IMG/VR virus record: IMGVR_UViG_3300028914_000001
Span: 29,489 to 93,488 of that record
Source: a virus
Lineage: Duplodnaviria; Heunggongvirae; Uroviricota; Caudoviricetes
DNA length: 64,000 bases
Reading direction: 5' to 3' (one strand)
This document shows, piece by piece, positions 7,166 through 53,779 of this stretch. How positions within the stretch are numbered: position 1 is the first letter of the stretch; every line of letters starts with the position of its first letter. Position numbers and translations under genes: made by a program. Under the pieces are notes generated by a model. The model made no database searches. It had not been told where the DNA came from and worked only from the letters and a program-made list of their open reading frames with translations.

Positions 7166-7678
7166 TTAATTACCTGCCAATTTAGCAAGCGCTTCAAGAT
7201 TTTCCTTGTCCGTCATGCTGATGTAGGATTTTTCAACAATCAGGTCGCCCCTGAGAGCTGTCATGGCAGCTTGCCAATGACCCCTGATAGCCAAGTCGTG
7301 GAACTTGTCGATATTCTCTTGTGCGGACATTAGTCGGAGCAGACATCCTGCATCGTCGTCATTGGTATATACCGTCTGGGCTGTTCCGTCTTCAAGCTGG
7401 AACTTAATCCTGTATTCGTACGGGATGTCCACCTCGATTGGGTCGTAACTGAGCGGGTCCTTCGGGTTAATCCTGCGGTGGACAGTTCCTTTCTGGATGA
7501 ATTTTCCCCTTTCGGTGGAGAGGATTTTAACGCTGTTCTGGCCGTGTTTAGCTTCCGAGACATTGAACGAGGGGAAGAACGGGTAGATTGGGGCGAGCTT
7601 GTAGGCGCACCAGATGCCCATGACAGGAACAGATGAAACTTGATATACTTCTTCCATGGTTATTTCACCTCGATGCAC
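7166..7678 (-). CDS. hypothetical protein (170 aa)
   Basis: Track ORF; the start appears to be a GTG. Confidence 0.5.
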   Translation of the reverse strand: MHRGEITMEEVYQVSSVPVMGIWCAYKLAPIYPFFPSFNVSEAKHGQNSVKILSTERGKFIQKGTVHRRINPKDPLSYDPIEVDIPYEYRIKFQLEDGTAQTVYTNDDDAGCLLRLMSAQENIDKFHDLAIRGHWQAAMTALRGDLIVEKSYISMTDKENLEALAKLAGN

Positions 7679-7917
7679 TGGTAGCCGTACTTTACCAAGT
7701 CGGTATATACGGTTGAATAGAGCTGGGTGGTATCCTTTCCGAACAGGGGTCTATCCGTCTGCCTGAAGAAGTACCTTGTCTCGGGGGCATTGACAACGAG
7801 TTCATATCCTGCGTTTTCGCAGTTCCTGAGGGAAGTGTAGCCTGGGATTGATGTGGAGGACAGGCCTCCTGCATTGCTTCCGTGGTAGAGTACTGTAAAT
7901 ACGATGAGTGTCCACAT
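7660..7917 (-). CDS. small secreted protein (85 aa, signal peptide)
   Basis: N-terminal hydrophobic segment; overlaps the next gene by 19 nt. Confidence 0.5.
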   Translation of the reverse strand: MWTLIVFTVLYHGSNAGGLSSTSIPGYTSLRNCENAGYELVVNAPETRYFFRQTDRPLFGKDTTQLYSTVYTDLVKYGYQCIEVK

Positions 7918-7930
7918 GGTGTTGCTTCCT

Positions 7931-8521
7931 TTAATCAGATTCAGTTAAGCCTGTAACGATGGTCTTGGATTCTTCTTTTTTGGCGAAATAGGCCGCTTTC
8001 GCCTCATGGAGTCTCTTGGCAAAGTCGGGGAAGAGTTCCTTGTAGAGTTCTACATTGTCCTTATCCTTGGCTTCGACAAGTTCTTCGAGGATAGGTGGCA
8101 TGAAGCTTTTTCCGCCGCCGAAGACGATGGGCTTGTCGGTAAAGCCGTTCTTGTCTTCCCAGCATACGAGGTCTTCGCACCATGTCTTGAACTGGATGAA
8201 CTCTGGGTCCTTTCTCAGTTCTTCCCTGGACCTGGGTTCCTTCTTTTCGTGCAAGTCCTTGCGGGCCATCTCCAGGAGGAAGTCGTCGCACATCTGATTG
8301 ATGCGTTCCTCGGTCAGGTCGGCGAGGTATCCCACGATGACATTGACATAGGGTTCATGGACATAGGGGGTAAGCGAGACGACGATATGGGTCTTTGCGT
8401 ACTTGGTCAATTTTCTGTCCAAATCTTCTTTATAGCAGGCTCTTTCAGTGATGGTTTCGAACCGTTGCTCATAACGGTGGCCTTGAATCATCTGTGAGTT
8501 GATAAATGTGTTTTCTGCCAT
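7931..8521 (-). CDS. hypothetical protein (196 aa)
   Basis: AAAGGAACTAACCC RBS, first gene after the promoter at 8552-8580. Confidence 0.6.
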   Translation of the reverse strand: MAENTFINSQMIQGHRYEQRFETITERACYKEDLDRKLTKYAKTHIVVSLTPYVHEPYVNVIVGYLADLTEERINQMCDDFLLEMARKDLHEKKEPRSREELRKDPEFIQFKTWCEDLVCWEDKNGFTDKPIVFGGGKSFMPPILEELVEAKDKDNVELYKELFPDFAKRLHEAKAAYFAKKEESKTIVTGLTESD

Positions 8522-8551
8522 GGGTTAGTTCCTTTTGTGTTTGACATGGAT

Positions 8552-8580
8552 AATATACATAAATAAATCCCCTCTGTCAA
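8552..8580 (-). promoter_or_regulatory. sigma70-type promoter; the -35 forms the loop of the hairpin CCCCTC-TTGACA-GAGGGG
   Basis: TTGACA-N17-TATATT on the minus strand; stem at 8568-8587 followed by a U-rich tract. Confidence 0.6.
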
Positions 8581-8610
8581 GAGGGGGTTGGAAATTTTTT
8601 TGTATCGGGC

Positions 8611-8814
8611 CTATAAGATACCCCGTTTTTCCACCGTTTTGGCATCCAAGGAGAAAGTGGCACCGCAAACGGAGCAACGCTTGATATAGACGAGTTTTCC
8701 TGTTAGAGGGTCCCTTCGTGGTTCCACGTCGCCCGCCAAGTTGGAAATGACGGGCTTGACGGAATCTTCCCCGTTGCACAGGGGGCATCGTGACCAGGTG
8801 TGCGTAAGTGTCAT
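8611..8814 (-). CDS. zinc-ribbon protein (67 aa)
   Basis: CPLC...CSVC pair; GGAGAT RBS. Confidence 0.5.
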   Translation of the reverse strand: MTLTHTWSRCPLCNGEDSVKPVISNLAGDVEPRRDPLTGKLVYIKRCSVCGATFSLDAKTVEKRGIL

Positions 8815-8815
8815 T

Positions 8816-9001
8816 TCATCTCCTGTATCTTTCCTTGTATATCAAATCCAGCAGGGTCCAGAAGGAAGCGGTATTGACGATGACGAAGATGACGAGGCCG
8901 ACTATATGGAGAACGGAGAGTTCTGCCGTATATAGGAGGTAGATTCCTAGTACTACGGCGACCATATTGATGAAGCAGATGTAGTCTTTATTGTGGTTCA
9001 T
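8816..9001 (-). CDS. small membrane protein (61 aa, 2 TM)
   Basis: GGAG RBS; two hydrophobic helices. Confidence 0.5.
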   Translation of the reverse strand: MNHNKDYICFINMVAVVLGIYLLYTAELSVLHIVGLVIFVIVNTASFWTLLDLIYKERYRR

Positions 9002-35071: not shown

Positions 35072-35145
35072 TAATCGGGCAGGTGGGATTCGAACCCACA
35101 CTGAAGGGGGTTTAAACCCCATTCCTCTACCAGTTGGGTTACTAC
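35072..35145 (-). tRNA. tRNA-like gene (74 nt, anticodon UAA, Leu-type reading) with a weak D-arm
   Basis: 7-bp acceptor stem with one G-U; canonical GTGGG-TTCGAAT-CCCAC T-arm; anticodon loop TTTAAAC; D-stem pairs poorly. Confidence 0.45.
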
Positions 35146-35160
35146 CCGAACCAATTCAAT

Positions 35161-37073: not shown

Positions 37074-37802
37074 TTAACCACCTGCGGGCCAGTCAACGTA
37101 GCACTTACCCTTATTTTTCTTCACATAGGAAATAATCATGCGCTGCATCTGCTTGTACTCCTTGTCACTGCACTCGTCGGTGTTCTGAATAATGACAGCA
37201 TCATTGTCAAGGATAAAGGACGCAAGGTCGCAGAAGTCCAAGTAAGAATTGCAGCTGTCATCTACGCTCAGAATAGACAAGTCTGCATTGGGCTCGGTAA
37301 TCTTGTCAATCGTCCTGAGCATGTAGCTCATAATGATAGACTGGAAGGATTCATGCCCATAGCATCCGTTCGAAGCCCAATATTTCGGCCCAATGTATGC
37401 ACCGTTTTTCTTGGACTCTACTTTTGTATTCTTGATGGTAAGAGTGATATTCCAGTGCTTCTTGAAGCTCTTCTTCATGTAAGCAATGAACTTGCGATAT
37501 GCAGCAACAATTTCATCATTGCGCTTGATTTCCTTAGCGGTAATGTTCAGGTAGCCCTTCTTTTTCTCAGACCACTTGCCACAAGTCAACTTGTCGCACC
37601 AGTATTTCATGATGATTAGGAAGCAGTAGCTAGCCTTTTCTTCAGGCAGCTTCCTTTCGATAAGCGTTCTCTCGCTAAAATCCATCTCACCGTCAATACA
37701 GACCTTGACGGGTTCCTTGTTGAATACGCTACCCCTCGGGATGACGATTGCGTGCATCGAGGAAGAGTTCGTCTCGAATGTTGATTCTCGTATCGTTTTC
37801 AT
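37074..37802 (-). CDS. FETNSSS-motif family protein A (242 aa), unknown function
   Basis: N-terminus MKTIRESTFETNSSSMHA is shared with three paralogs; AGGAGAATGGAA RBS. Confidence 0.6.
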   Translation of the reverse strand: MKTIRESTFETNSSSMHAIVIPRGSVFNKEPVKVCIDGEMDFSERTLIERKLPEEKASYCFLIIMKYWCDKLTCGKWSEKKKGYLNITAKEIKRNDEIVAAYRKFIAYMKKSFKKHWNITLTIKNTKVESKKNGAYIGPKYWASNGCYGHESFQSIIMSYMLRTIDKITEPNADLSILSVDDSCNSYLDFCDLASFILDNDAVIIQNTDECSDKEYKQMQRMIISYVKKNKGKCYVDWPAGG

Positions 37803-42145: not shown

Positions 42146-42174
42146 AATATAGTTAAATTGTCCTGATTTGTCAA
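42146..42174 (-). promoter_or_regulatory. sigma70-type promoter
   Basis: TTGACA-N17-TATATT. Confidence 0.55.
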
Positions 42175-42908: not shown

Positions 42909-43388
42909 TTAACCATCGAACCACACAGCGTTTGCCTTCACATATATCTGACCATTCTCTTCAACCTCAGTAATGCCCGATTTATCGTAATCATAATCAC
43001 CTTCAGAGGTGAAATTGTCGGAAAGCTCCTTCATTTTAAGGTAACTGCAAGCAACATGTGATGTATTCAGATGATACATAAGAGATTCGAGCGGACCGTA
43101 ACCCTCTCCATACTTCACAGAAAGCTTGATAAATTCCACGACAAAGTCCTTAGGCAACTTGCCAATGCTTTCCGGCTCGTTCTTCATGAGGTAATCAGCA
43201 TAGTCATGTACGTCGACTATGTCATCCCTCTTATCCCACGGTCCGCTGCCACCCATCGGGTTACACAGAAGCCAAACCAAGTTCGGGTCACCTGCGACAA
43301 ACCTGTCCCATTTTTCCTTCGGCGTATACGTCAAGGCGTGTGCCGAAGACGAATTAGTTTCAAATACTGAATATCGTACTGTTTTCAT
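42909..43388 (-). CDS. FETNSSS-motif family protein B (159 aa)
   Basis: MKTVRYSVFETNSSSAHAL; TAGAGGAACTT RBS. Confidence 0.6.
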   Translation of the reverse strand: MKTVRYSVFETNSSSAHALTYTPKEKWDRFVAGDPNLVWLLCNPMGGSGPWDKRDDIVDVHDYADYLMKNEPESIGKLPKDFVVEFIKLSVKYGEGYGPLESLMYHLNTSHVACSYLKMKELSDNFTSEGDYDYDKSGITEVEENGQIYVKANAVWFDG

Positions 43389-43407: not shown

Positions 43408-43445
43408 CAATATAACAAAAAAGCGGATGGCTGTCAACCATCCGC
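43408..43445 (-). terminator. terminator hairpin GCGGATGG-TTGACAG-CCATCCGC plus U-tract, with the -35 of the next promoter in its loop
   Basis: 8-bp stem followed by TTTTTTGTTATATT on the minus strand. Confidence 0.55.
43409..43437 (-). promoter_or_regulatory. sigma70-type promoter overlapping the terminator hairpin
   Basis: TTGACA-N17-TATATT. Confidence 0.5.
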
Positions 43446-43466: not shown

Positions 43467-44063
43467 TTAGAACTTTACCGTCGGGGCCACATCAGCGCCA
43501 GTAACAGCGGAGAACGGCACCTTCGGGGTCACTCCGGCGAATCCCGCCACGAAGACACCGGGGAATGTTCTGACCTTGTTGTTAAGGTTGTTGACTGCCA
43601 CATTGAACTGGCGTCTGGACTCGGCGATACGGTTTTCGCATCCTTCAAGCTGAACACGCAGGTCACGGAAAGCGGCGTTAGCCTTCAAGTTCGGATAGTT
43701 TTCTGTAACCATCATGAGACGCTGCAATGCTCCACCGAGGCTGTTCTGTGCTTCCTGGAACTTCTTCATTGCACGTTCGTCACTGAGCATGCTTTCATCC
43801 ATCTTAATCACGCCACCCATACGGCTACGAGCCTCGATGACTTCGGTGAGCGTACTCTTCTCGAAGTTGGCTTCGCCCTTCACCGTTTCGACGATGTTCG
43901 GAATAAGGTCGTAACGACGCTGGTACTGGTTTTCGACGTTAGCCCAGCTCATCTGCACACCGTTTTCAAGAGTGCGAAGGGAGTTGAACTGGCCGATGAA
44001 AGCGCATCCGCTGATAAAGGCGAGCACGACAATGACGATAAGTACGAGTTTACCCGTAGACAT
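43467..44063 (-). CDS. lemA: LemA-family membrane protein
   Basis: N-terminal TM, then NSLRTLENGVQMSWANVENQYQRRYDLIPN, YPNLKAN and LEGCENRIAESRR blocks typical of LemA. Confidence 0.8.
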   Translation of the reverse strand: MSTGKLVLIVIVVLAFISGCAFIGQFNSLRTLENGVQMSWANVENQYQRRYDLIPNIVETVKGEANFEKSTLTEVIEARSRMGGVIKMDESMLSDERAMKKFQEAQNSLGGALQRLMMVTENYPNLKANAAFRDLRVQLEGCENRIAESRRQFNVAVNNLNNKVRTFPGVFVAGFAGVTPKVPFSAVTGADVAPTVKF

Positions 44064-44101
44064 TTTATACCTCTTTGGTTTAGATTGTTGGTTTTGTTGA
44101 A

Positions 44102-44130
44102 AATATAGCATTTAACTTGGTGCTTGTCAA
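44102..44130 (-). promoter_or_regulatory. sigma70-type promoter
   Basis: TTGACA-N17-TATATT. Confidence 0.55.
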
Positions 44131-44133
44131 GGG

Positions 44134-44874
44134 CTACCATCCGCCATGACTTCCGCCACCGCCGAAACTGCCTCCGCCGAATCCGCTGCTGCCTCCGCCA
44201 CCCTTGCCTCCGCCAAGACATGACAGTATAACGAGAACGGTACTCAACACGGGAATATCAGTGAGCGCCTCGATGATACCAAGTAGGATTAGGACGACGA
44301 TTACTATGGCTACCACGATGGCTACCGTGGTTCCGCTCACCTTCTTTTCATCGGCAGGGGCGAGCTGAGCCGTATCAAGGGTTGCCGTGAGCGTAATCTT
44401 CTTCTCTTCTTGGACCTTCGTGGCAATCATGCTTGCAAGCTTGATGATGCCCTGACCACCCTCTCCACTCTGCAATGCGGGGATAAGGGAGGTCTGCTGC
44501 ATATGTTCCACGAGGACATCAGGCAAATACCCCTCGGAACCGTAACCCACATGTACGCCTCGGTAGTGCGGGTCCATCACGACATAGATGAATACACCCT
44601 CGTTCGAATCCTTGCTGCAGATTGCCCACTTCTGGGCTACACGCAAACTGAATTGAACCGGGTCTTCACCGTCAATCGTCTTGAATGTCGCCACGGCAAG
44701 GCCGAAACGAGCGTTCTTGGCAAGGTCGGACGCAATCGAATTTAATTGGTAGACCTGGTTTGCCGACATGATTCCCGCCCCGTCGTAAACGAACGAGTTG
44801 GTTGGAATCGGTGGGACCTCGATGGCCGAAACCAACGAGACAAGTAGCACTAATATGGCTAGGATTTTCTTCAT
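44134..44874 (-). CDS. TPM-domain (YgcG-like) protein with signal peptide, TM segment and Gly-rich tail
   Basis: Signal peptide, TPM-like core, TM helix, C-terminal GGGSFGGGGSHGGW; canonical LemA partner. Confidence 0.7.
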   Translation of the reverse strand: MKKILAILVLLVSLVSAIEVPPIPTNSFVYDGAGIMSANQVYQLNSIASDLAKNARFGLAVATFKTIDGEDPVQFSLRVAQKWAICSKDSNEGVFIYVVMDPHYRGVHVGYGSEGYLPDVLVEHMQQTSLIPALQSGEGGQGIIKLASMIATKVQEEKKITLTATLDTAQLAPADEKKVSGTTVAIVVAIVIVVLILLGIIEALTDIPVLSTVLVILSCLGGGKGGGGSSGFGGGSFGGGGSHGGW

Positions 44875-44883
44875 GTTTCCCTC

Positions 44884-45597
44884 TTAGCTGTGATAGAATG
44901 TTAGGCTGATGCGTTTTCTGAGAAGGTCTCTCGGCATGTCATGCTTCTTCTCGTACAGGTCTTCTCGCCAATCCTCGGGACCGAAGAAAGTCATAGCACC
45001 TCTAAAGGAGTCACTTGTCAGACAATTACCTGTAATGCCGACGTAATGAGCAAGCTTCGGACAGTTCGGATAATCGCTGTTCTCGTTGAACCGTTTTAGC
45101 ATGTCATCGTATTCATCACGGGGCATGTCAGCAGGGTCATACTCGCAGTTCCGATAATCCTGTGGCTCATTGCCGTCGATGACAACCTTGTCGCCATCCA
45201 CGGTCAGTGCATAGCAACGATAGTCCTTGACCTCGGGAAGACCGAACTCTTTATACACATCATTGATGATGTCAAGGAAATCCTTTCGGTTCCTTTCCAT
45301 GATATCCTGACGCACGACATAGCTAACCTTCCCGTCCTTATCGACCTTTCTATCGATAAGGCAGGAGAATACAGACTGGGCGGCGAGATACTGGATAATC
45401 CTCTTGACATCGTCAGTGTCGCACTTGGAGTTGCTGGACTGCCAGAACGTATCCAGCTCGATTTCAAGCAATCCGTTCTCGTCGGGCAGCGGGAACTCCG
45501 ACTTGTCTCGAAGGGCAGGTTCAGTACCCTGTGGATAAGTGAAGGCGTGTTCAGACGAGGAGTTCGTCTCGAAAACATTCATTCTGATGGTTCTCAT
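44884..45597 (-). CDS. FETNSSS-motif family protein C (237 aa)
   Basis: MRTIRMNVFETNSSSEHAF. Confidence 0.6.
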   Translation of the reverse strand: MRTIRMNVFETNSSSEHAFTYPQGTEPALRDKSEFPLPDENGLLEIELDTFWQSSNSKCDTDDVKRIIQYLAAQSVFSCLIDRKVDKDGKVSYVVRQDIMERNRKDFLDIINDVYKEFGLPEVKDYRCYALTVDGDKVVIDGNEPQDYRNCEYDPADMPRDEYDDMLKRFNENSDYPNCPKLAHYVGITGNCLTSDSFRGAMTFFGPEDWREDLYEKKHDMPRDLLRKRISLTFYHS

Positions 45598-45606
45598 AGA
45601 GTTACC

Positions 45607-46041
45607 CTAATCGTTGTCGTTTCCCATGGAGATTACAGAGCCGCTGAACACAAAGGTGAACAGTTCCTCTGGGTCATCAAGCATGTTGCCAATGCGACGG
45701 CTATCTTCGTCTTGGGCAGGTGCGCTCTGGTGGTCGATGTAACCAGACGGTTCATCATTGAAGTCGAAATCGACGATAACGCCACGCTCTTCGAAGTATT
45801 CCTGGATTGCAGGGAGCTTTTCACGGAGGCCTTCGTGGAAGATATACTTGCCAGCCACGAGAGCATAGTCGAGGTGGTCATCAGGTGTTTCCACATCTGG
45901 GCCATACCAACCATACTCACCGCTGCCAAATACCCTGATGCGGGGATAACGCTTCGGGTCGAACTTTTGTTCAGTGACTATGCAGAACGTATGGGCACTC
46001 GAACTGTTTGTTTCAAAAACAGAATCTCTAATTGTCTTCAT
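45607..46041 (-). CDS. FETNSSS-motif family protein D (144 aa)
   Basis: MKTIRDSVFETNSSSAHTF; AAGGATGGTAAA RBS; ATG at track residue 13. Confidence 0.6.
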   Translation of the reverse strand: MKTIRDSVFETNSSSAHTFCIVTEQKFDPKRYPRIRVFGSGEYGWYGPDVETPDDHLDYALVAGKYIFHEGLREKLPAIQEYFEERGVIVDFDFNDEPSGYIDHQSAPAQDEDSRRIGNMLDDPEELFTFVFSGSVISMGNDND

Positions 46042-46042
46042 T

Positions 46043-46993
46043 TTACCATCCTTGGGTTGTAACCTGAAGCAGGTCATGAATGTTTTCCTTACCCGTGAAC
46101 GAGTAACGCTTGTCCAGAGCTGCGGTGCTCATGCGGGCTACCTGCATGTTCGGAACGTCGATGTACATCGTGGCACAGGTGATGTTCCCGTCAGCATCCT
46201 TCACATCCGTGTCGGAACCCTGGAACAGCGTATTGAAATCCTTGTCAGAGATATTGAGAGCCGTCTTCGGGTCCAACTGTTCTATGCCGAGGCAGTCGAA
46301 CGACATCACCTTAAAGGGAAGAATCGAGCGCATCATCATGAATTTCAGCCAGTTGATATTAGCCTTGATTTCATCACTGTGCTTTTCAAGCATGGCATGA
46401 CCACGACGCAAATCCTTGTAACCAAGGATAAGCACCTTCCTGTCGCTCAATGCAGGGAGGTCCTTCGCAGTCAAGATGCCCGCAATGGTATGGATTACAA
46501 CATTGTCGCCGAGCGTGTCGATGAAGTCGAAGTCTTCCTTGTTGCTGGAATCCGTAAGCGAGATGCCGATACCGTGAACGAGACCGTCGCCCACAATCTT
46601 GCAGATGATGTCCTTGTACGGTTTCAGGTGACGCTGGTTGATTGTGATGTTTGCGATTACACCCTGTTCCTTCAAGCGTTCGAGGAACCAGACGAGGTCA
46701 GGATGGGCCAAGGCGTTGCCACCACCGATAGCGCACTCGGTTCCTGAATGAAGGGTAGCAATCATCGGTTCCAATGCCCTGAGGTCGCCATGCTTGCCAT
46801 TTACCGTAGAGTTTTCATGGCAGTAAACGCATCCACCGTCGCACTGGTCGGTAATCTTGATGTCAAAGTTCTCGGGAAAATCATATGTGAAATGGTCGGC
46901 CATCGGGTCGAGCGTTTCCTTGATTTTGGTGCCATCCGAGTAGATGGTCACCATATGGTTGCCGTTTGTATATGTGTTAAGTATCGTTCGCAT
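46043..46993 (-). CDS. radical SAM enzyme (QueE-like?)
   Basis: CDGGCVYC (CxxxCxxC) cluster at residues 50-57 and GGGNALAHPDL glycine motif. Confidence 0.65.
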   Translation of the reverse strand: MRTILNTYTNGNHMVTIYSDGTKIKETLDPMADHFTYDFPENFDIKITDQCDGGCVYCHENSTVNGKHGDLRALEPMIATLHSGTECAIGGGNALAHPDLVWFLERLKEQGVIANITINQRHLKPYKDIICKIVGDGLVHGIGISLTDSSNKEDFDFIDTLGDNVVIHTIAGILTAKDLPALSDRKVLILGYKDLRRGHAMLEKHSDEIKANINWLKFMMMRSILPFKVMSFDCLGIEQLDPKTALNISDKDFNTLFQGSDTDVKDADGNITCATMYIDVPNMQVARMSTAALDKRYSFTGKENIHDLLQVTTQGW

Positions 46994-46994
46994 C

Positions 46995-47972
46995 TTAGTC
47001 TCGCCAACGGTTTCTCTTCATTTCTTCAATGAATCCTTCGGGGTAGTACAATTCGTTAGACATTCCATTGTACGTTCCCGACATGTGAATGATTTCCGAC
47101 GTAGCCTTGTCGTAAGTCTGGCATGCAACGCAATGTCCGCAACGACCCTTGTATGTCGGGCTATAACAGAAGCTGCACAGTTCGATAGGGAAATGACGGT
47201 AGTTCAAGTTACGGATAATATCCGCCTTTGTCAGGAACTGAAGGGGATAGCTGAACATGATATTCTTCTGCCCAACCACCGTCAACAGATGCTCCTGTGC
47301 GGCAAGGATATTGTGCGACCAGTTCCAGAAGTCGTCACCCTTGTGATATCCGAAGTGGTAGCAGGTCTTATTCCTGCCACACAGAGATACCATCGAGGCC
47401 ATAAAGGGTTGTTGGAAAAGAGACGGTTCCGAACCGTTCCAGTTATCCATATTCCCTTCAAGCTTAATGAAATCTCGTTTAGGTTCATAGTCGTACTTCT
47501 TAGCGAGATATTCGAGAATCTTTTCCTGAGAAGCAACTTCAGACAAATAGTGATGGGATGTGCCAAACTGTTCACACCGGAAGCTGAGCAAGCGTGGCTT
47601 GATACCCTTTTCGAGCAAATCAACGAGAATAAGCGTACTGTCAAGACCACCACTGAATACTACCGCATTGTTGATAATATCTTCAAACTTCTTTGTAATA
47701 GGCTTTACTTCATGGAGCCTATCGAAGACCTTCTCTGCGGCAGATTTGAATTGGTGGGTTTCCTCAGGCGATTCGACATCGCACAAAACTTCTTCGGGAG
47801 CGGCGTCGCACAATTCCGCTTCATCTTTCTTTTCATCCTCAGCGTCCACCTTCAATTCAGCCTTATACGGCTTCTTTTTGGCCACGAGAGCTCGCTTCAA
47901 CAGGGTGCCGTATTTCGGTTTAGACTTTGTTTCTGGACGAATCTTTTCGTTTGATTGTTTCTTTTTAGTCAT
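46995..47972 (-). CDS. queC: QueC-like PP-loop ATPase (7-cyano-7-deazaguanine synthase family) with a Lys-rich N-terminal extension of about 100 aa
   Basis: VVFSGGLDST PP-loop; C-terminal C-x8-C-x2-C-x2-C zinc motif (CYSPTYKGRCGHCVAC) as in QueC. Confidence 0.65.
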   Translation of the reverse strand: MTKKKQSNEKIRPETKSKPKYGTLLKRALVAKKKPYKAELKVDAEDEKKDEAELCDAAPEEVLCDVESPEETHQFKSAAEKVFDRLHEVKPITKKFEDIINNAVVFSGGLDSTLILVDLLEKGIKPRLLSFRCEQFGTSHHYLSEVASQEKILEYLAKKYDYEPKRDFIKLEGNMDNWNGSEPSLFQQPFMASMVSLCGRNKTCYHFGYHKGDDFWNWSHNILAAQEHLLTVVGQKNIMFSYPLQFLTKADIIRNLNYRHFPIELCSFCYSPTYKGRCGHCVACQTYDKATSEIIHMSGTYNGMSNELYYPEGFIEEMKRNRWRD

Positions 47973-48005
47973 GTGATGCCTTTTGTTGAGTTTTGTTTAA
48001 AAAAA

Positions 48006-48034
48006 AATATAGTCTTTTAAATCCTTTTTGTCAA
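48006..48034 (-). promoter_or_regulatory. sigma70-type promoter of the QueC/radical-SAM/FETNSSS operon
   Basis: TTGACA-N17-TATATT. Confidence 0.55.
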
Positions 48035-48053
48035 GCCAAACCACCGAAAGTCA

Positions 48054-48082
48054 TTGACAATTTACAAAATAATAACTATTTT
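48054..48082 (+). promoter_or_regulatory. sigma70-type promoter (divergent)
   Basis: TTGACA-N17-TATTTT. Confidence 0.5.
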
Positions 48083-48119
48083 CTACTCAAACTAAACCAG
48101 ACAACCAAAGGAGTCCACT

Positions 48120-48308
48120 ATGTATACAATTACAATAGACCAGTTCGCACTCATGGCTTATCTGGCAGCAGTCACTATGTTGCTTGTAGTCATGTCGATA
48201 CAGCTTATCAAGATAAAGAAAAAACTGAACTCAATCGAATCAAGTTGGCATTCTTTTATCCTGGGACCACACAAGCGCAAGCACAAATATCCACTGGACC
48301 ATGTATAA
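48120..48308 (+). CDS. small membrane protein (62 aa)
   Basis: CAAAGGAGTCCACT RBS; TM helix. Confidence 0.45.
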   Translation: MYTITIDQFALMAYLAAVTMLLVVMSIQLIKIKKKLNSIESSWHSFILGPHKRKHKYPLDHV

Positions 48309-48311
48309 GAT

Positions 48312-48581
48312 ATGTCTAAGCATTCCGACTTTTACGATGAGATACTAGGCCACAGCGATACCCCAGATACAAGCAGCGAGTACGACCCTTACGACCCGCT
48401 CGGGTTATCTAGCGGACGAACGTCCTGCACAATGCGACCAGTTGCCAGCCCTCTGGCGGAGGAAATGGCCGATGTGTTCATACAGGACTCCAAAGGCAAC
48501 TGGGTGGAGGACAAAGAATCCGAGGAGAAACGGGAGATTCTCATGAGACGCCTCCAGCACATGAACTATTTTAGTGACTAA
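48312..48581 (+). CDS. hypothetical acidic protein (89 aa)
   Basis: Track ORF with an ATG start. Confidence 0.5.
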   Translation: MSKHSDFYDEILGHSDTPDTSSEYDPYDPLGLSSGRTSCTMRPVASPLAEEMADVFIQDSKGNWVEDKESEEKREILMRRLQHMNYFSD

Positions 48582-48586
48582 CCATA

Positions 48587-48620
48587 TAAAAAAGACCGCC
48601 AATTAAGGCGGCCTTTTTAA
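48587..48620. terminator. bidirectional rho-independent terminator
   Basis: AAAAAGACCGCC-aattaa-GGCGGCCTTTTT. Confidence 0.7.
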
Positions 48621-48886
48621 ATCCAAGCCCAATCGTTATCCCAAATGTATTCAATAACTTCTTTTGGAGTGCATAGAATTTCCTGTTCACCATTGCCATC
48701 TATGCAGATATAGTTCTTAGCATCCTCATCGTATATGATTTGACCATCCCCAAATCGAACCACATTACATGCTCGATGAATTGCAATGCCGTATCGCCTA
48801 TATTTGCCTAATACATTCATCAAGGAATCTACACCACGAGCATATCGTGGTGCATTGATTCCATATGTCTTTCTCTGACTACGCAT
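48617..48886 (-). CDS. hypothetical protein (89 aa)
   Basis: Track ORF immediately downstream of glf. Confidence 0.5.
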   Translation of the reverse strand: MRSQRKTYGINAPRYARGVDSLMNVLGKYRRYGIAIHRACNVVRFGDGQIIYDEDAKNYICIDGNGEQEILCTPKEVIEYIWDNDWAWI

Positions 48887-50142
48887 TAGACTAAACCAAA
48901 GATGCAGCCGGGTTCGGCAGGGTGTTCCGTAATCAATCTGTCATCGACCAATGCAGCCTTAATCACGTCGTCCATGTCCATGTACTTGTACAGACCGAGA
49001 CGGCCAGTAGGGACATACTTTTTCGGCAAGTAACCAATTATCTTCTGGTACTTTTCATTCTCGCTTGCAAGAGGATAGTATCGCTCGCACTTGCCACGTT
49101 CGTACTTCACAGGGTACTCATAAGTAACAAGGGTCTTTTGTTCGTCAAGTTGTTCATTGTTGAAGAACTTGTGCTCAATGCTCCTCGTGTACGCTACTTC
49201 TGGCGAAGTGTAGTTCACAACAGCATTTCCCTGCCAGTTGTCAGTAGGAAGCAGCTTCTCTTCAAACTTCAATGAACGCCAGTCAAGCCAGTAATCTTCA
49301 AACCCGTCCTCGTGAACAAGTCCAGCAAACAATTTGCTGTCGTTCATCAAAGAGTTCAACAGGTCTGATACATCACCAGAATAGAACACCTGGTCAAACT
49401 TGTTCTTGCTCATTCCATGTACACTGTGGTTGAATATATCTTCGCAGAAATCTTCACCATAGTGAATAGGATGCCCTTCGAACATGTTCTCAATCCATGT
49501 GGTATATCCTTCCTCGGGAATACCCTGATAGATGTCATTGAAGTAGTTGTTGTCGTAGGTGAACCTAAGCGGCAAACGCTTGATTATCCACGGTTCCAAC
49601 TCTGTGCATGGCTTTCCCCACTGCTTTTCAGTGTAGTGCTTAATCAACTTTTCATACACGGTAGTTCCAACAAGGGAGATTGCCTGTTCTTCAAGGTTCC
49701 TTGGGGATTCAAACGGATGTTCCTCCTTGTACCGTTTGATTTCGGCTTGAATAATACCTTTCACAATGCTAGGAGACACAATATTCACACCAAGATTCCG
49801 TTCGAACAAGCGAACAAATGTATTCATGTTGAACGGGAGATTGTAGGTCTCCGATTCCTTACTAGCCTGATTGTAATACACGGCAATCGGACTGTTCACA
49901 AAGTTGTTGAACTTAGCGAACTTGTTCGCAAACTTCCATACAGCAGGGTCAGACGTATGGAAGATATGTGCGCCATACTTGTGAACGGTGATACCTTCTA
50001 CCTTTTCAGTATAGCAGTTACCGCCAAGGTGTTTACGCTTCTCGATAATCGTGATGTCTGCCGGATTGACACCAAACTCATTAACGAGTCGCTGATAGAT
50101 TACTGCATTGTAAAGGCCCGCACCTACGAACAGATACTTCAT
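48886..50142 (-). CDS. glf: UDP-galactopyranose mutase
   Basis: N-terminal FAD-binding GxGxxG, HKYGAHIFHT, NLEEQAISLVG and YTEKQWG blocks near-identical to E. coli Glf; GGAGG RBS. Confidence 0.95.
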   Translation of the reverse strand: MKYLFVGAGLYNAVIYQRLVNEFGVNPADITIIEKRKHLGGNCYTEKVEGITVHKYGAHIFHTSDPAVWKFANKFAKFNNFVNSPIAVYYNQASKESETYNLPFNMNTFVRLFERNLGVNIVSPSIVKGIIQAEIKRYKEEHPFESPRNLEEQAISLVGTTVYEKLIKHYTEKQWGKPCTELEPWIIKRLPLRFTYDNNYFNDIYQGIPEEGYTTWIENMFEGHPIHYGEDFCEDIFNHSVHGMSKNKFDQVFYSGDVSDLLNSLMNDSKLFAGLVHEDGFEDYWLDWRSLKFEEKLLPTDNWQGNAVVNYTSPEVAYTRSIEHKFFNNEQLDEQKTLVTYEYPVKYERGKCERYYPLASENEKYQKIIGYLPKKYVPTGRLGLYKYMDMDDVIKAALVDDRLITEHPAEPGCIFGLV

Positions 50143-51041
50143 TCTGCGGCCTCCGCATAAAGTATTGTCGGCTGGTCCTTGTGGACGCCCGCACTGAACT
50201 CACCGACCGTCATGTTGAATCCAGTTACGTCAATCTTTTCATTAACCTTTCTGTAATTCTTCTCGATACGGTCGATATCCTCTTCCGTCAAATAAAGATG
50301 GTCAGAGGTTTCTTCAAGCTGTTCCTCGGGTCGAAGGAGTTCATTCAATGTTCTGATATCAACCTTGTTCTGCATAGCCCAGACCAGCACCGCATGCAAC
50401 ATACGATACTCTTCTGTCGGCTTCACAACGGTCGTCTGGTCGATATACTTCGAAGCATTGAACGGACGGACAATCAGGTGAATGCCAGTCCTTGACGGAA
50501 CACGAGCCACAATCATGTCCTTGGGGTCAACCTTCACGTTCATACCAGGCTGCATAATCTCCGCCTCGAACGCCTTTACAATAGGGCTGTCAACCGTGCA
50601 GTCGTCAAGGTCGATAAGCCATGTGGTGGTAGCTCTCGGTTCGGAACTTACCTTTCCACATGCCGTACTCATTGCACGGAACGGGTTGCGTTGCGGGTCA
50701 AGCTGATGATGTTCGAACTGCTTGGTGTCGTTCTCCTTGGCACGGTAGATGAACTCCCGGACATAGTGCCATCCGATGGCCGTGTAGTTACGACGGTTCA
50801 AACGGATATACGCACGGGCGTTGAACTCATGGCAGAGCTTGATGATTTCGTCACGGAGCTCTTCGAGGTGGCCTTCGTGGTTCAAGAGAATCTCTCGAAT
50901 CGTGCGGTCGCCATTGTTATGCTTTCCCTGGACATTGTTTCCATCCTTGGCACGAAGCAAGATTTCAAGGTAGTAGCAGTCGCCGACTCGTTCGAATTTA
51001 AGCAGACTGCTGATTAGTTTAAAGTTGTCTATAATTTTCAT
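50139..51041 (-). CDS. hypothetical protein (300 aa), translationally coupled to glf
   Basis: ATGA overlap with the glf start; GAGGCGAAC RBS. Confidence 0.6.
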   Translation of the reverse strand: MKIIDNFKLISSLLKFERVGDCYYLEILLRAKDGNNVQGKHNNGDRTIREILLNHEGHLEELRDEIIKLCHEFNARAYIRLNRRNYTAIGWHYVREFIYRAKENDTKQFEHHQLDPQRNPFRAMSTACGKVSSEPRATTTWLIDLDDCTVDSPIVKAFEAEIMQPGMNVKVDPKDMIVARVPSRTGIHLIVRPFNASKYIDQTTVVKPTEEYRMLHAVLVWAMQNKVDIRTLNELLRPEEQLEETSDHLYLTEEDIDRIEKNYRKVNEKIDVTGFNMTVGEFSAGVHKDQPTILYAEAAE

Positions 51042-52398: not shown

Positions 52399-52860
52399 CT
52401 AATGAATAAAATCGCAACTGTCAACAACGGCTTCCATAATCTTGGCCTTTTCTTCGTCGCTCAGCTTGGGCAAGTCATGATACGCATTGTCGATTTTCCA
52501 TTTGGCCTTCAACATCCAGTAGAAATCCCTCATGCGGTAGTCCATGTCTTCGAGGAGTTCTTTATCCTTTCCATCTTCGAAGAAAGCCAGCATTTCGGAA
52601 TTCAGGCTACCCTTTGAGGCAGTGTATCCTTCCTTCAACTGATTGCACTTCTGGGCGTGAACATACGCATCCTCTCGGTTGAGAAACACGATTTTACCAT
52701 CGACATTTGCGGCAAATCCATCCGTACCCAGATTATACACCCCATACACCTGCAGCAGGTGCTTGAAAGCCTCGCCATGGTCGTGACCATGTCCGAACGG
52801 GCACATTATCGGCTTTCCCGATTGAGTGAACTTGGATAGAGAAACGGCAGCGATAATCAT
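52399..52860 (-). CDS. hypothetical protein with a CxxxHGH motif (weak QueD/PTPS-like hint)
   Basis: CPFGHGHDHGE; TGGAGGAAATA RBS before the ATG at 52860. Confidence 0.45.
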   Translation of the reverse strand: MIIAAVSLSKFTQSGKPIMCPFGHGHDHGEAFKHLLQVYGVYNLGTDGFAANVDGKIVFLNREDAYVHAQKCNQLKEGYTASKGSLNSEMLAFFEDGKDKELLEDMDYRMRDFYWMLKAKWKIDNAYHDLPKLSDEEKAKIMEAVVDSCDFIH

Positions 52861-52872
52861 TATTTCCTCCAA

Positions 52873-53750: not shown

Positions 53751-53779
53751 AATATACATAATTAAATAACGCCTGTCAA
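53751..53779 (-). promoter_or_regulatory. sigma70-type promoter
   Basis: TTGACA-N17-TATATT with TTTAATTA in the spacer. Confidence 0.55.

Follow-up and report, generated by a model that had tools for sequence, protein, structure and literature searches.

In this study, I analysed a 64,000-nt stretch (hereafter the window) of a Caudoviricetes genome, positions 29,489 to 93,488 of the IMG/VR record IMGVR_UViG_3300028914_000001. On its minus strand lie a gene for a radical S-adenosylmethionine (radical-SAM) enzyme and genes for small proteins that share an N-terminal tag with the core FETNSSS, together with a gene for a QueC-like PP-loop protein. At its strongest, the conclusion permitted by the data is that the FETNSSS genes and the radical-SAM gene travel together as one functional unit. 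The overall explanation proposed here is that this operon encodes a radical-SAM maturase for the FETNSSS tag, that the QueC-like enzyme was recruited to it, and that no 7-deazaguanine pathway is involved; I give this explanation roughly an even chance. The original prediction had regarded the QueC-like and radical-SAM genes as a partial 7-deazaguanine module. The two open reading frames (ORFs) exist as it described them, and the FETNSSS proteins that it placed downstream are real. The genes concerned are as follows (aa, amino acids; pI, isoelectric point).

46995 to 47972, minus strand: 325-aa member of the phage clade phrog_1550, a PP-loop/zinc ATP-pyrophosphatase of the QueC family but not a canonical QueC.
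46043 to 46993, minus strand: signature gene of the module, encoding a radical-SAM enzyme of 316 aa (phrog_16999) for which one [4Fe-4S] site is predicted.
45607 to 46041, minus strand: FETNSSS protein 1 (FET144), 144 aa, pI 4.4, with the tag FETNSSSAH at nt 45991 to 46017.
44884 to 45597, minus strand: FETNSSS protein 2 (FET237), 237 aa, pI 4.8, with the tag at nt 45547 to 45573.
42909 to 43388, minus strand: FETNSSS protein 3, 159 aa, pI 4.8, with the tag at nt 43338 to 43364.
37074 to 37802, minus strand: a fourth, dispersed FETNSSS paralogue, 242 aa, pI 8.8, with the tag at nt 37752 to 37778 and no Pfam match.

Is the association of the radical-SAM gene with the FETNSSS genes common in other genomes? 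Among 84 radical-SAM loci, the FETNSSS cluster (181 proteins) was found in 82. The other neighbour families occur in 24 loci at most, except for one cluster of antisense ORFs in 32. All of the FETNSSS genes (185/185) lie on the same strand as the radical-SAM gene, in one to eight copies per locus, and the median gap between the radical-SAM gene and the nearest FETNSSS gene is 23 nt (100 nt or less in 64 of 81 loci). The order of the genes is not fixed, with the FETNSSS genes upstream in 65 loci and downstream in 11. In the reciprocal search with a FETNSSS profile, a radical-SAM gene was located within 10 kb in 73 of 80 loci; in L128, one of the seven exceptions, the contig carries a radical-SAM gene elsewhere. 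The pair was also found in 24 of 33 loci from GTDB genomes and metagenome-assembled genomes (MAGs), mostly on gut and rumen MAG contigs. Lak-B5 has four FETNSSS paralogues directly after the radical-SAM gene, and in the Microcystis phage Ma-LMM01 the radical-SAM protein is gp128 and the FETNSSS protein gp130 is encoded just upstream; the Lak megaphage and Ma-LMM01 radical-SAM proteins are about 40% identical to that of the window. The radical-SAM family comprises 1101 clusters at E ≤ 1e-3, the best 120 of which are at least 60% identical, and at least 518 IMG/VR stretches match it.

No fusion of a radical-SAM gene with a FETNSSS gene was found in the loci examined. The long radical-SAM ORFs were considered as fusions and rejected, since they contain an intein (L181) or result from read-through from an upstream homing-endonuclease ORF (L147). 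An array in L010 (12269 to 20988 of IMGVR_UViG_3300037512_000782) has eight FETNSSS paralogues, and a 649-aa CN-hydrolase/NAD-synthase (NadE) gene lies between the sixth and seventh copies. In the chromosome of Breznakiella homolactica RmG30 (L115, 7579 to 8875), the gene after a FETNSSS gene is a radical-SAM gene that is frameshifted and split into two frames (7854 to 8369 and 8429 to 8875), with two ankyrin-repeat genes, an AraC regulator gene and an MCRA oleate hydratase gene as neighbours. The two-gene cassette seems to have decayed in this bacterial chromosome, which is the sole complete one matched and is uninformative on the cellular context.

The FETNSSS proteins are small (100 to 260 aa), mostly acidic and fast-diverging phage proteins, with a pI below 5.5 in 97% of them and an aromatic residue content of 14.6%. 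Their universal conserved part is the N-terminal tag M-K-x-x-R-x-x-[VT]-F-E-T-N-S-S-S-x-H, whose FETNSSS stretch begins at a fixed offset of about 9 to 10 residues from the start Met. FET144 and FET237 start with M-[KR]-T-I-R-x-x-V-F-E-T-N-S-S-S-x-H (N-terminal peptide MKTIRDSVFETNSSSAHTF…). The 136 unique proteins compared were retrieved with a pattern in which SSS and H were preset and the choice of residue was limited at the E, T and N positions. Among them, no variation occurs in the Arg at position -5 or in E, N, S, S, S and H, while F is found in 130 (otherwise Y) and T in 134 (otherwise S). Without the tag, the proteins split into 20 groups that lack BLAST connections. The 144-aa subfamily has the additional invariant motifs GEYGW, GYIDHQS and C-terminal DNDNH; GYIDH occurs in 24 of the 136 proteins, and no motif except the tag is universal. 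Of the 422 homologues found at E ≤ 0.1, the best 120 include none with a Pfam domain or a name beyond "hypothetical protein". No Pfam domain was detected in 13 members of different subfamilies, three of the window plus a further ten taken from there and from other loci, and FET237 matched nothing in Pfam, NCBIfam, PHROG or PADLOC.

The conservation of the tag acts at the protein level. Within the window, 7 to 12 of the 13 to 15 identical residues per pair of paralogues use different codons, and the Ser codons alternate between AGY and TCN. A DNA repeat or recombination site as the origin of the tag was rejected on account of these codon differences between paralogues. A glycyl-radical motif (R-x-G-V-F) in the tag was also rejected, as the Gly is present in only 66 of the 136 proteins. 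An AlphaFold2 (AF2) model of FET144 was obtained with a predicted local distance difference test (pLDDT) value of 89 and a predicted template modelling score of 0.85; residues 1 to 14, comprising the tag, form a low-confidence coil. The modelled fold has no neighbour in the PDB and no likeness to known enzymes. From these sequences, the tag appears to behave like a recognition or modification site.

A different role for the tag should be considered here, since it recalls the signal of the T4 internal proteins, which is 10 residues long (MKTYQEFIAE) and is cleaved at (L/I)xE. If the tag were likewise a capsid-targeting and prohead-protease cleavage signal, cut between Glu and Thr in …V-F-E-T…, the FETNSSS genes would be an array encoding hypervariable internal proteins that are injected, and the linkage to the radical-SAM gene would be due to something else. 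The part of the tag up to Glu is indeed 9 to 10 residues long, starts with MKT and ends with hydrophobic-x-Glu, the protein bodies are hypervariable, and the genes are arranged in tandem, with copy numbers that vary. However, this explanation accounts neither for the near-obligate adjacency to a radical-SAM gene on the same strand nor for the invariance of T-N-S-S-S-x-H past the putative cut site. Moreover, an identical tag occurs in Lak phages, Ma-LMM01 and gut phages, for which a shared head-protease specificity is not expected. Thus, a capsid-targeting signal seems very improbable.

Two sites of the radical-SAM protein are referred to below.

46820 to 46843, minus strand: cluster motif CDGGCVYC (CxxxCxxC; C51, C55 and C58).
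46715 to 46726, minus strand: glycine motif GGGN, residues 90 to 93, read from the sequence.

The protein belongs to the radical-SAM superfamily, having its CxxxCxxC cluster site and its partial TIM-barrel core. It scores 33.8 bits with Pfam Radical_SAM (gathering score, 29.5), and C51, C55 and C58 are the only invariant Cys residues across 16 aligned homologues, C234 being replaced by Asn in Lak and Ma-LMM01. Its predicted structure (pLDDT 86.7) has radical-SAM fold neighbours, and a conserved N-terminal beta-domain (Y8, N10, G11, D20, G21 and T27) lies ahead of the core. In NCBIfam, only weak matches were obtained at E ≤ 0.1 (MoaA with 27 bits, tungsten-cofactor maturase, NrdG2, HxsC, KamA and others), and none of the QueE models was matched. 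In a fold comparison with the PDB, the nearest structures are SuiB (17.9), SkfB (16.5), ChlB (14.9), PqqE (14.4), EpeE (14.2) and anSME (14.0). QueE ranks 25th with a score of 9.1, and only the generic core, namely the CxxxCxxC site and a glycine-rich SAM motif, is common to QueE and the window protein. Thus, the likeness to QueE noted in the original prediction was not borne out, although CDGGCVYC and GGGN are both present.

An insertion in a homologue touches the glycine motif. In L181 (12581 to 14710 of IMGVR_UViG_3300013947_000022), an intein of about 400 aa, which has a LAGLIDADG-type endonuclease, splits the radical-SAM gene at the exact point between …TECA and CGGGN. Since the gene is interrupted directly before GGGN, the position of the intein fits GGGN as a functionally critical site. 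A second small radical-SAM-like ORF (210 to 250 aa, with CDCHCKYC) was noticed about 2 kb upstream of the radical-SAM gene of the module; it recurs in 16 gut-phage loci (phages of 100 to 180 kb), for example at 7313 to 8065 of L033.

The core of the system would thus be the radical-SAM enzyme and the FETNSSS proteins. The enzyme may be a protein maturase of the anSME type or of the type that matures RiPPs (peptides made on ribosomes and modified after translation). It would recognise the invariant N-terminal tag, and its 5′-deoxyadenosyl radical would modify one tag residue, the candidate chemistry at Thr, Asn, Ser or His being an epimerisation, a cross-link or an oxidation; one enzyme could serve one to eight paralogous substrates per genome. 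This maturase-substrate relationship is favoured because a single enzyme gene accompanies a variable number of divergent paralogues, because the paralogues share only a short terminal tag, because the tag is unpacked in the FET144 model, and because the nearest folds of the enzyme are peptide and protein maturases. I estimate the probability of this relationship as even or somewhat less. The SPASM/twitch maturases have co-encoded substrates with a conserved recognition or modification motif; the FETNSSS genes, which are candidate substrate genes, are adjacent in 81 to 82 of 84 loci. There are differences from SuiB, SkfB, ChlB, PqqE, EpeE/YydG and anSME. The window family lacks the SPASM/twitch cysteines, and the putative FETNSSS substrates, as folded proteins of 100 to 260 aa, are not short peptides. 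The FETNSSS motif is also unlike any described recognition or modification motif, and a full-text search found nothing relevant. Because auxiliary clusters are lacking, and given what is generally known of radical-SAM enzymes, a two-electron oxidation of the anSME or sactisynthase type is disfavoured; epimerisation or a redox-neutral rearrangement is somewhat more plausible.

What, then, is the QueC-like protein? Its features are as follows.

47637 to 47654, minus strand: PP-loop SGGLDS, residues 107 to 112, within VVFSGGLDST.
47121 to 47168, minus strand: zinc motif C269-x8-C278-x2-C281-x2-C284, all four Cys invariant in the family.
47688 to 47972, minus strand: N-terminal extension of about 95 aa, Lys/Glu-rich (20 Lys, 3 Arg, 14 Glu and 6 Asp), lineage-specific.

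By sequence, the protein is nearer to the QueC family than to other PP-loop groups. It scores 47.8 bits with Pfam QueC (gathering score, 22), and a profile of its family matches the PDB sequences of QueC with E-values of 1.8e-9 and 2.7e-9, Cap9 with 1.2e-8 and QatC with 1.9e-4. The matches to LarE (0.024), TilS (0.12) and an asparagine-synthetase-domain protein (0.67) are far poorer, so the original prediction was right in preferring QueC to these groups. The PP-loop residues S107, G108, G109, D111 and S112 are invariant in family alignments, and the conserved Lys (K249), like the zinc motif, is shared with canonical QueC.

Nevertheless, comparison of the sequences places the protein within the QueC superfamily rather than among QueC orthologues, because it fails the cut-off of the equivalog model TIGR00364 (39.2 bits versus 150.3 bits) and lacks canonical motifs. 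Besides the PP-loop and the zinc site, the canonical QueC signature comprises YxQxHxxE, VPxRN, YPDC and K165, and Y35 (of YxQxHxxE) and R99 (of VPxRN) are essential in E. coli QueC by mutagenesis (PMC13082051). In the window protein, the region corresponding to YxQxHxxE is FRCEQFGTSHHYLSE; within the family, the aligned residues vary, E145 alone being invariant. The Arg-Asn pair of VPxRN aligns with Q188-P189 in the Cap9 alignment, Q188 being invariant in the close family. In the YPDC region, the invariant F215 aligns with Tyr, while the Asp position is N217, which is variable in the family and has the invariant D213-D214 two residues before it. In Cap9 and QueC, that Asp reads the guanine edge and the Tyr stacks on the deazaguanine (PMC13279940). 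The protein has other invariant motifs, QQP (Q187-Q188-P189) and GYHKGDDF, in common with a large phage clade.

This clade is phrog_1550, annotated as "QueC-like queuosine biosynthesis" (E 7.3e-24, 85.3 bits, residues 43 to 297). All 55 sampled relatives match it and share the signature VxWSGGxDSTL … FGYxxGDDFW … CExP…CGxCxPC; their best E-value with TIGR00364 is 1.3e-12, far from the cut-off range. A full-library profile search gave 3456 representatives at E ≤ 1e-3, of which 1155 reach E ≤ 1e-10. In IMG/VR, a scan with the broad alignment of the family confirmed only six loci. Members such as Bacillus phage SP-15 gp114 and Pseudomonas phage PS119XW gp244 are singletons amid hypothetical genes in jumbo phages. 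Typical members have about 200 to 280 aa and no extension, and they do not adjoin a radical-SAM gene. The extension, without counterpart in QueC and correctly described as unusual in the original prediction, is restricted to the closest relatives (60% identity or more) and is missing from distant members of 228 to 236 aa. Wherever checked (L003, L007, L008, L090, L125 and L126), the extension-bearing homologues are those that adjoin the radical-SAM gene. The nearest outgroup, P0025 (53% identity), has a short extension, and its gene starts 2 nt after the end of a gene for a Thg1-like protein (tRNA-His guanylyltransferase family; L121, 2196 to 3841), which hints at a tRNA-related role for some phrog_1550 members. 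Thus, the QueC-like protein adds a member with a novel extension to a phage family that is annotated but uncharacterised, and the membership leaves its mechanism unexplained.

Could the pair still be a part of a preQ0 or amido-deazaguanine (ADG) pathway for DNA or tRNA modification, with the PP-loop protein as QueC, the radical-SAM protein as a QueE analogue, and FolE, QueD and DpdA encoded elsewhere in the genome of about 422 kb or supplied by the host? The Pfam QueC score above the gathering score, the PP-loop with an exact Cx8CxxCxxC zinc motif and the aromatic F215 at the place of the deazaguanine-stacking Tyr are in line with this. So are the names given by the source to a protein identical to the QueC-like one (7-cyano-7-deazaguanine synthase) and to the radical-SAM protein ("organic radical activating enzyme"). 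Moreover, the gene search covered 64 kb of the genome, and QatC shows that a loss of canonical residues alone is no proof of lost deazaguanine chemistry (PMC13082051 and PMC13279940). However, the protein lacks the motifs proven by mutagenesis and has N217 in place of the guanine-reading Asp, its TIGR00364 score is far below the cut-off, and the partner enzyme is not recognised as QueE by profile or by fold. The radical-SAM homologues almost never adjoin a QueC-type gene, and the phrog_1550 members in the inspected loci are solitary and have no queuosine genes around them. As the original prediction had stated, FolE, QueD and DpdA are absent from the window. In a Pfam scan of 90 of its ORFs (10 neighbour proteins at E ≤ 0.1 and 80 further ORFs at E ≤ 1e-4), nothing matched GTP_cyclohydroI, PTPS, TGT or QueF. 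Likewise, none of queD, queE and folE, the usual company of canonical queC, lies beside the window gene. A CxxxHGH protein (52399 to 52872), suggested as a hint of QueD, was rejected as such, having no match in Pfam, NCBIfam or among PDB sequences. Since there is no canonical QueC signature and no QueE, since FolE, QueD, QueF, TGT and DpdA are absent from the window, and since the hint of QueD gained no support, a 7-deazaguanine DNA-modification reading is not supported by the locus. The partial module was therefore abandoned; across about 200 loci, the partner of the radical-SAM gene is the FETNSSS gene. I consider a deazaguanine role of the pair highly unlikely.

The alternative that the original prediction kept in reserve, a different ATP- and SAM-dependent modification acting together with the FETNSSS proteins, appears to point in the right direction for the radical-SAM enzyme, and the part of the QueC-like enzyme in the module is uncertain. 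The latter may be an ATP-dependent adenylate-forming enzyme of a phage-specific QueC clade, whose gene would have joined the operon in one lineage of rumen huge phages, the same lineage in which the basic extension was gained. It might perform a second, ATP-dependent ligation on the same acidic proteins in the manner of Cap9 and QatC, or might act independently. Recruitment is suggested by the predicted co-transcription with the pair, by the gain of a basic extension in the lineage in which the gene adjoins those of acidic FETNSSS proteins, and by precedent. Cap9, from the type IV cyclic oligonucleotide-based antiphage signalling system (CBASS), and QatC, from QatABCD, are QueC-family enzymes that act on a flexible N-terminal protein tail (doi 10.1101/2025.04.06.647259 and PMC13279940, respectively). 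In QatC, an extension precedes the PP-loop and the deazaguanine-recognition residues are replaced (PMC13279940). The window enzyme is similarly encoded beside proteins with an invariant and apparently flexible N-terminal tag. Cap9 is its best single-sequence match in the PDB and the sole end-to-end alignment (9nto_B, 36.6 bits), with the ATP site kept; the matches to QatC are weak, and both proteins carry an N-terminal extension before the PP-loop. On the other hand, the window gene is phage-encoded and not part of a bacterial defence system, and its link to the FETNSSS genes comes from one lineage. The partner tails of Cap9 and QatC begin with M(G/S)G, whereas the FETNSSS proteins begin with M-[KR]-x-x-R and have no Gly after Met. 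A PADLOC search of the ten neighbouring proteins detected no CD-NTase, Cap10, QatA, QatB or QatD; membership of a Qat, CBASS or viperin system was rejected, as PADLOC gave only weak QueC, QatC and pVip matches.

How widespread is the association of the QueC-like gene with the pair? It was found only in the rumen huge-phage lineage of the window, in the six loci L003, L007, L008, L090, L125 and L126. No QueC-like gene was detectable in Lak-B5 or Ma-LMM01. As it is found in one lineage, the adjacency of the QueC-like and radical-SAM genes has to be reckoned as one evolutionary event. Further PP-loop genes close to the module were considered as QueC-like and rejected, being NadE or 3′-phosphoadenosine-5′-phosphosulfate (PAPS)-reductase-like genes. 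In L108 (1192 to 2178) and L110 (4039 to 5025), a PAPS-reductase-like PP-loop enzyme of 328 aa is encoded between the FETNSSS and radical-SAM genes. These loci belong to a distant lineage (radical-SAM protein 35% identical), which makes this a second independent adjacency of an adenine-nucleotide alpha-hydrolase.

Several observations weigh against the explanation by a maturase and a recruited QueC-like enzyme. As for the latter, a QueC-like gene is absent from the other surveyed radical-SAM or FETNSSS loci (about 190), the 12 phrog_1550 loci compared have no neighbour family in common, P0025 adjoins the Thg1-like gene instead, and the FETNSSS tails start with Met-Lys and not with the Met-Gly of Cap9- or QatC-type N-terminal conjugation. 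Thus, recruitment is weakened by an adjacency that is a single event, by tails without an N-terminal Gly and by a family that otherwise stands alone. As for the radical-SAM enzyme, its family has no auxiliary-cluster cysteines, unlike SuiB, SkfB, PqqE and anSME, and small-molecule enzymes are almost as close in fold as the maturases (BlsE, 15.4; viperin, 15.0; MoaA, 13.8). In many FETNSSS subfamilies other than the 144-aa one, a terminal strand is followed by GxYGW, F[WY]H[ST] or YGHD. Given shared C-terminal features such as GxYGW, F[WY]H[ST] and DNDNH, the tag is possibly part of a conserved active or ligand site formed by the two termini and not a substrate tail. The most specific form of the explanation, in which a single-cluster radical-SAM enzyme would modify the ETNSSSxH tag of candidate host-takeover or anti-defence effectors and a QueC-family ligase would add a second modification, seems improbable.

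The last points on the radical-SAM side lead to another explanation of the FETNSSS proteins, namely that they are themselves enzymes or ligand-binders, in which the ETNSSSxH loop and C-terminal His or Asp residues form a metal or ligand site. The radical-SAM enzyme, here with the QueC-like ATPase, would then make or alter a small molecule that the FETNSSS proteins bind, carry or process. The invariant motifs of the 144-aa subfamily would suit such a site, as would the C-terminal motifs of the other subfamilies, the fold likeness to BlsE, viperin and MoaA, and the single cluster of the enzyme. That two different PP-loop enzymes, the QueC-like one and the PAPS-reductase-like one of L108 and L110, adjoin the radical-SAM gene in unrelated lineages also speaks for it. 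However, the tag is the only universal motif and 20 unconnected groups remain after trimming, the tag is unpacked in the AF2 model, and the FETNSSS fold is unlike that of any known enzyme. One to eight divergent paralogues per radical-SAM gene also fit one maturase with many substrates better. A ligand site of this kind is therefore unlikely, though less so than the capsid or deazaguanine alternatives.

The organisation of the locus bears on the co-transcription mentioned above. The module lies in a tightly packed row of minus-strand genes at 42.3 to 48.0 kb, with the QueC-like gene first, which also includes a gene for a 176-aa protein of no assigned function. The TAA-G-ATG junction between the QueC-like and radical-SAM genes was confirmed (gac TAA g ATG cga, a 1-nt spacer), and the radical-SAM gene is likewise separated from the first FETNSSS gene by 1 nt (TAA-a-ATG). 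The remaining features of the row are as follows.

48006 to 48034, minus strand: promoter-like site TTGACA-N17-TATATT, 34 nt 5′ of the start codon of the QueC-like gene, with 11 of 12 consensus positions.
44134 to 44874, minus strand: TPM-domain protein with a C-terminal membrane/Gly-rich tail (Pfam TPM_phosphatase, E 2e-22); the final gene ahead of the next promoter-like site.
44102 to 44130, minus strand: promoter-like site of the LemA gene itself, a copy of TTGACA-N17-TATATT.
43467 to 44111, minus strand: LemA-family protein (Pfam LemA, E 2.5e-52).
43423 to 43445, minus strand: terminator-like hairpin with 10 pairs and then a T-run, which overlaps the promoter-like site listed next.
43409 to 43437, minus strand: promoter-like site ahead of the third FETNSSS gene, a copy of TTGACA-N17-TATATT.

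The window contains 19 exact copies of TTGACA-N17-TATATT, while 0 are expected by chance; for this reason the sites look like a genuine promoter family of this phage, of the sigma-70 type. Other copies lie, for example, at 42146 to 42174 and 53751 to 53779. The sites are mostly on the minus strand, many of the 19 have a TTTAATTA-like internal block in common, and those examined near the locus are intergenic and just 5′ of genes. From the promoter-like site at the 5′ end, the later promoter copies and the hairpin terminator, a single transcription unit is predicted for the QueC-like, radical-SAM, FET144, FET237 and TPM genes. The TPM and LemA genes lie within the FETNSSS array, and this arrangement is kept in L003, a 64%-identical relative.

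Upstream of the operon, two small divergent ORFs on the plus strand (48054 to 48581), encoding 62 aa (hydrophobic) and 89 aa (acidic), have a TTGACA-N17-TATTTT site of their own and are flanked by the operon promoter and, at 48596 to 48611, a terminator-like hairpin. Just upstream of the operon there is also a gene pair (48886 to 51041), in which the gene for Glf (UDP-galactopyranose mutase) overlaps a 300-aa phrog_14949 gene by 4 nt; the pair is syntenic in L003 too. Glycosyltransferases of family 2 (GT2) and of DUF4422 are encoded elsewhere in the window, and together with Glf they suggest the synthesis of a galactofuranose-containing glycan by the phage. The window further encodes an RtcB RNA ligase, a PTH2 peptidyl-tRNA hydrolase, an M29 aminopeptidase, a DUF1848 protein, a Band_7/SPFH protein, a GNAT acetyltransferase and metallophosphoesterases, and it has a single tRNA gene, tRNA-Leu(TAA), at 35074 to 35149. 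Proteins identical to the PP-loop and radical-SAM proteins are recorded on a contig of about 422 kb, and close relatives of the pair occur on viral contigs of 370 to 420 kb and on rumen MAG contigs. A near-identity DNA search with 44000 to 50200 found no match among GenBank phages. The window thus belongs to a huge phage, probably of rumen origin.

In the literature searched, I found no description of the FETNSSS motif, of the radical-SAM/FETNSSS module or of a phage pair of QueC-like and radical-SAM genes, and nothing relevant on the Fe-S oxidoreductase of Ma-LMM01. The FETNSSS proteins have no Pfam family either. The analysis thus defines a compact two-gene module, shared by Lak megaphages and the cultivable Microcystis phage Ma-LMM01, with radical-SAM relatives in more than 500 IMG/VR stretches. 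It also corrects a likely mis-annotation, as QueC-like genes of the phrog_1550 type and adjoining radical-SAM genes should not be taken as evidence for 7-deazaguanine DNA modification in phages. If the module works as proposed, it fits the known theme of a radical-SAM maturase with its cognate protein, and it would represent a new phage protein modification and a new substrate class of radical-SAM enzymes. The tandem, rapidly diverging paralogues suggest a function in an arms race. The QueC-like family comprises several thousand sequence clusters of unassigned function, and its QueC relatives modify proteins in anti-phage defence. If the enzyme of the window performs a ligation on the FETNSSS proteins, it would be the first phage-encoded protein-modifying QueC, mirroring Cap9 and QatC.

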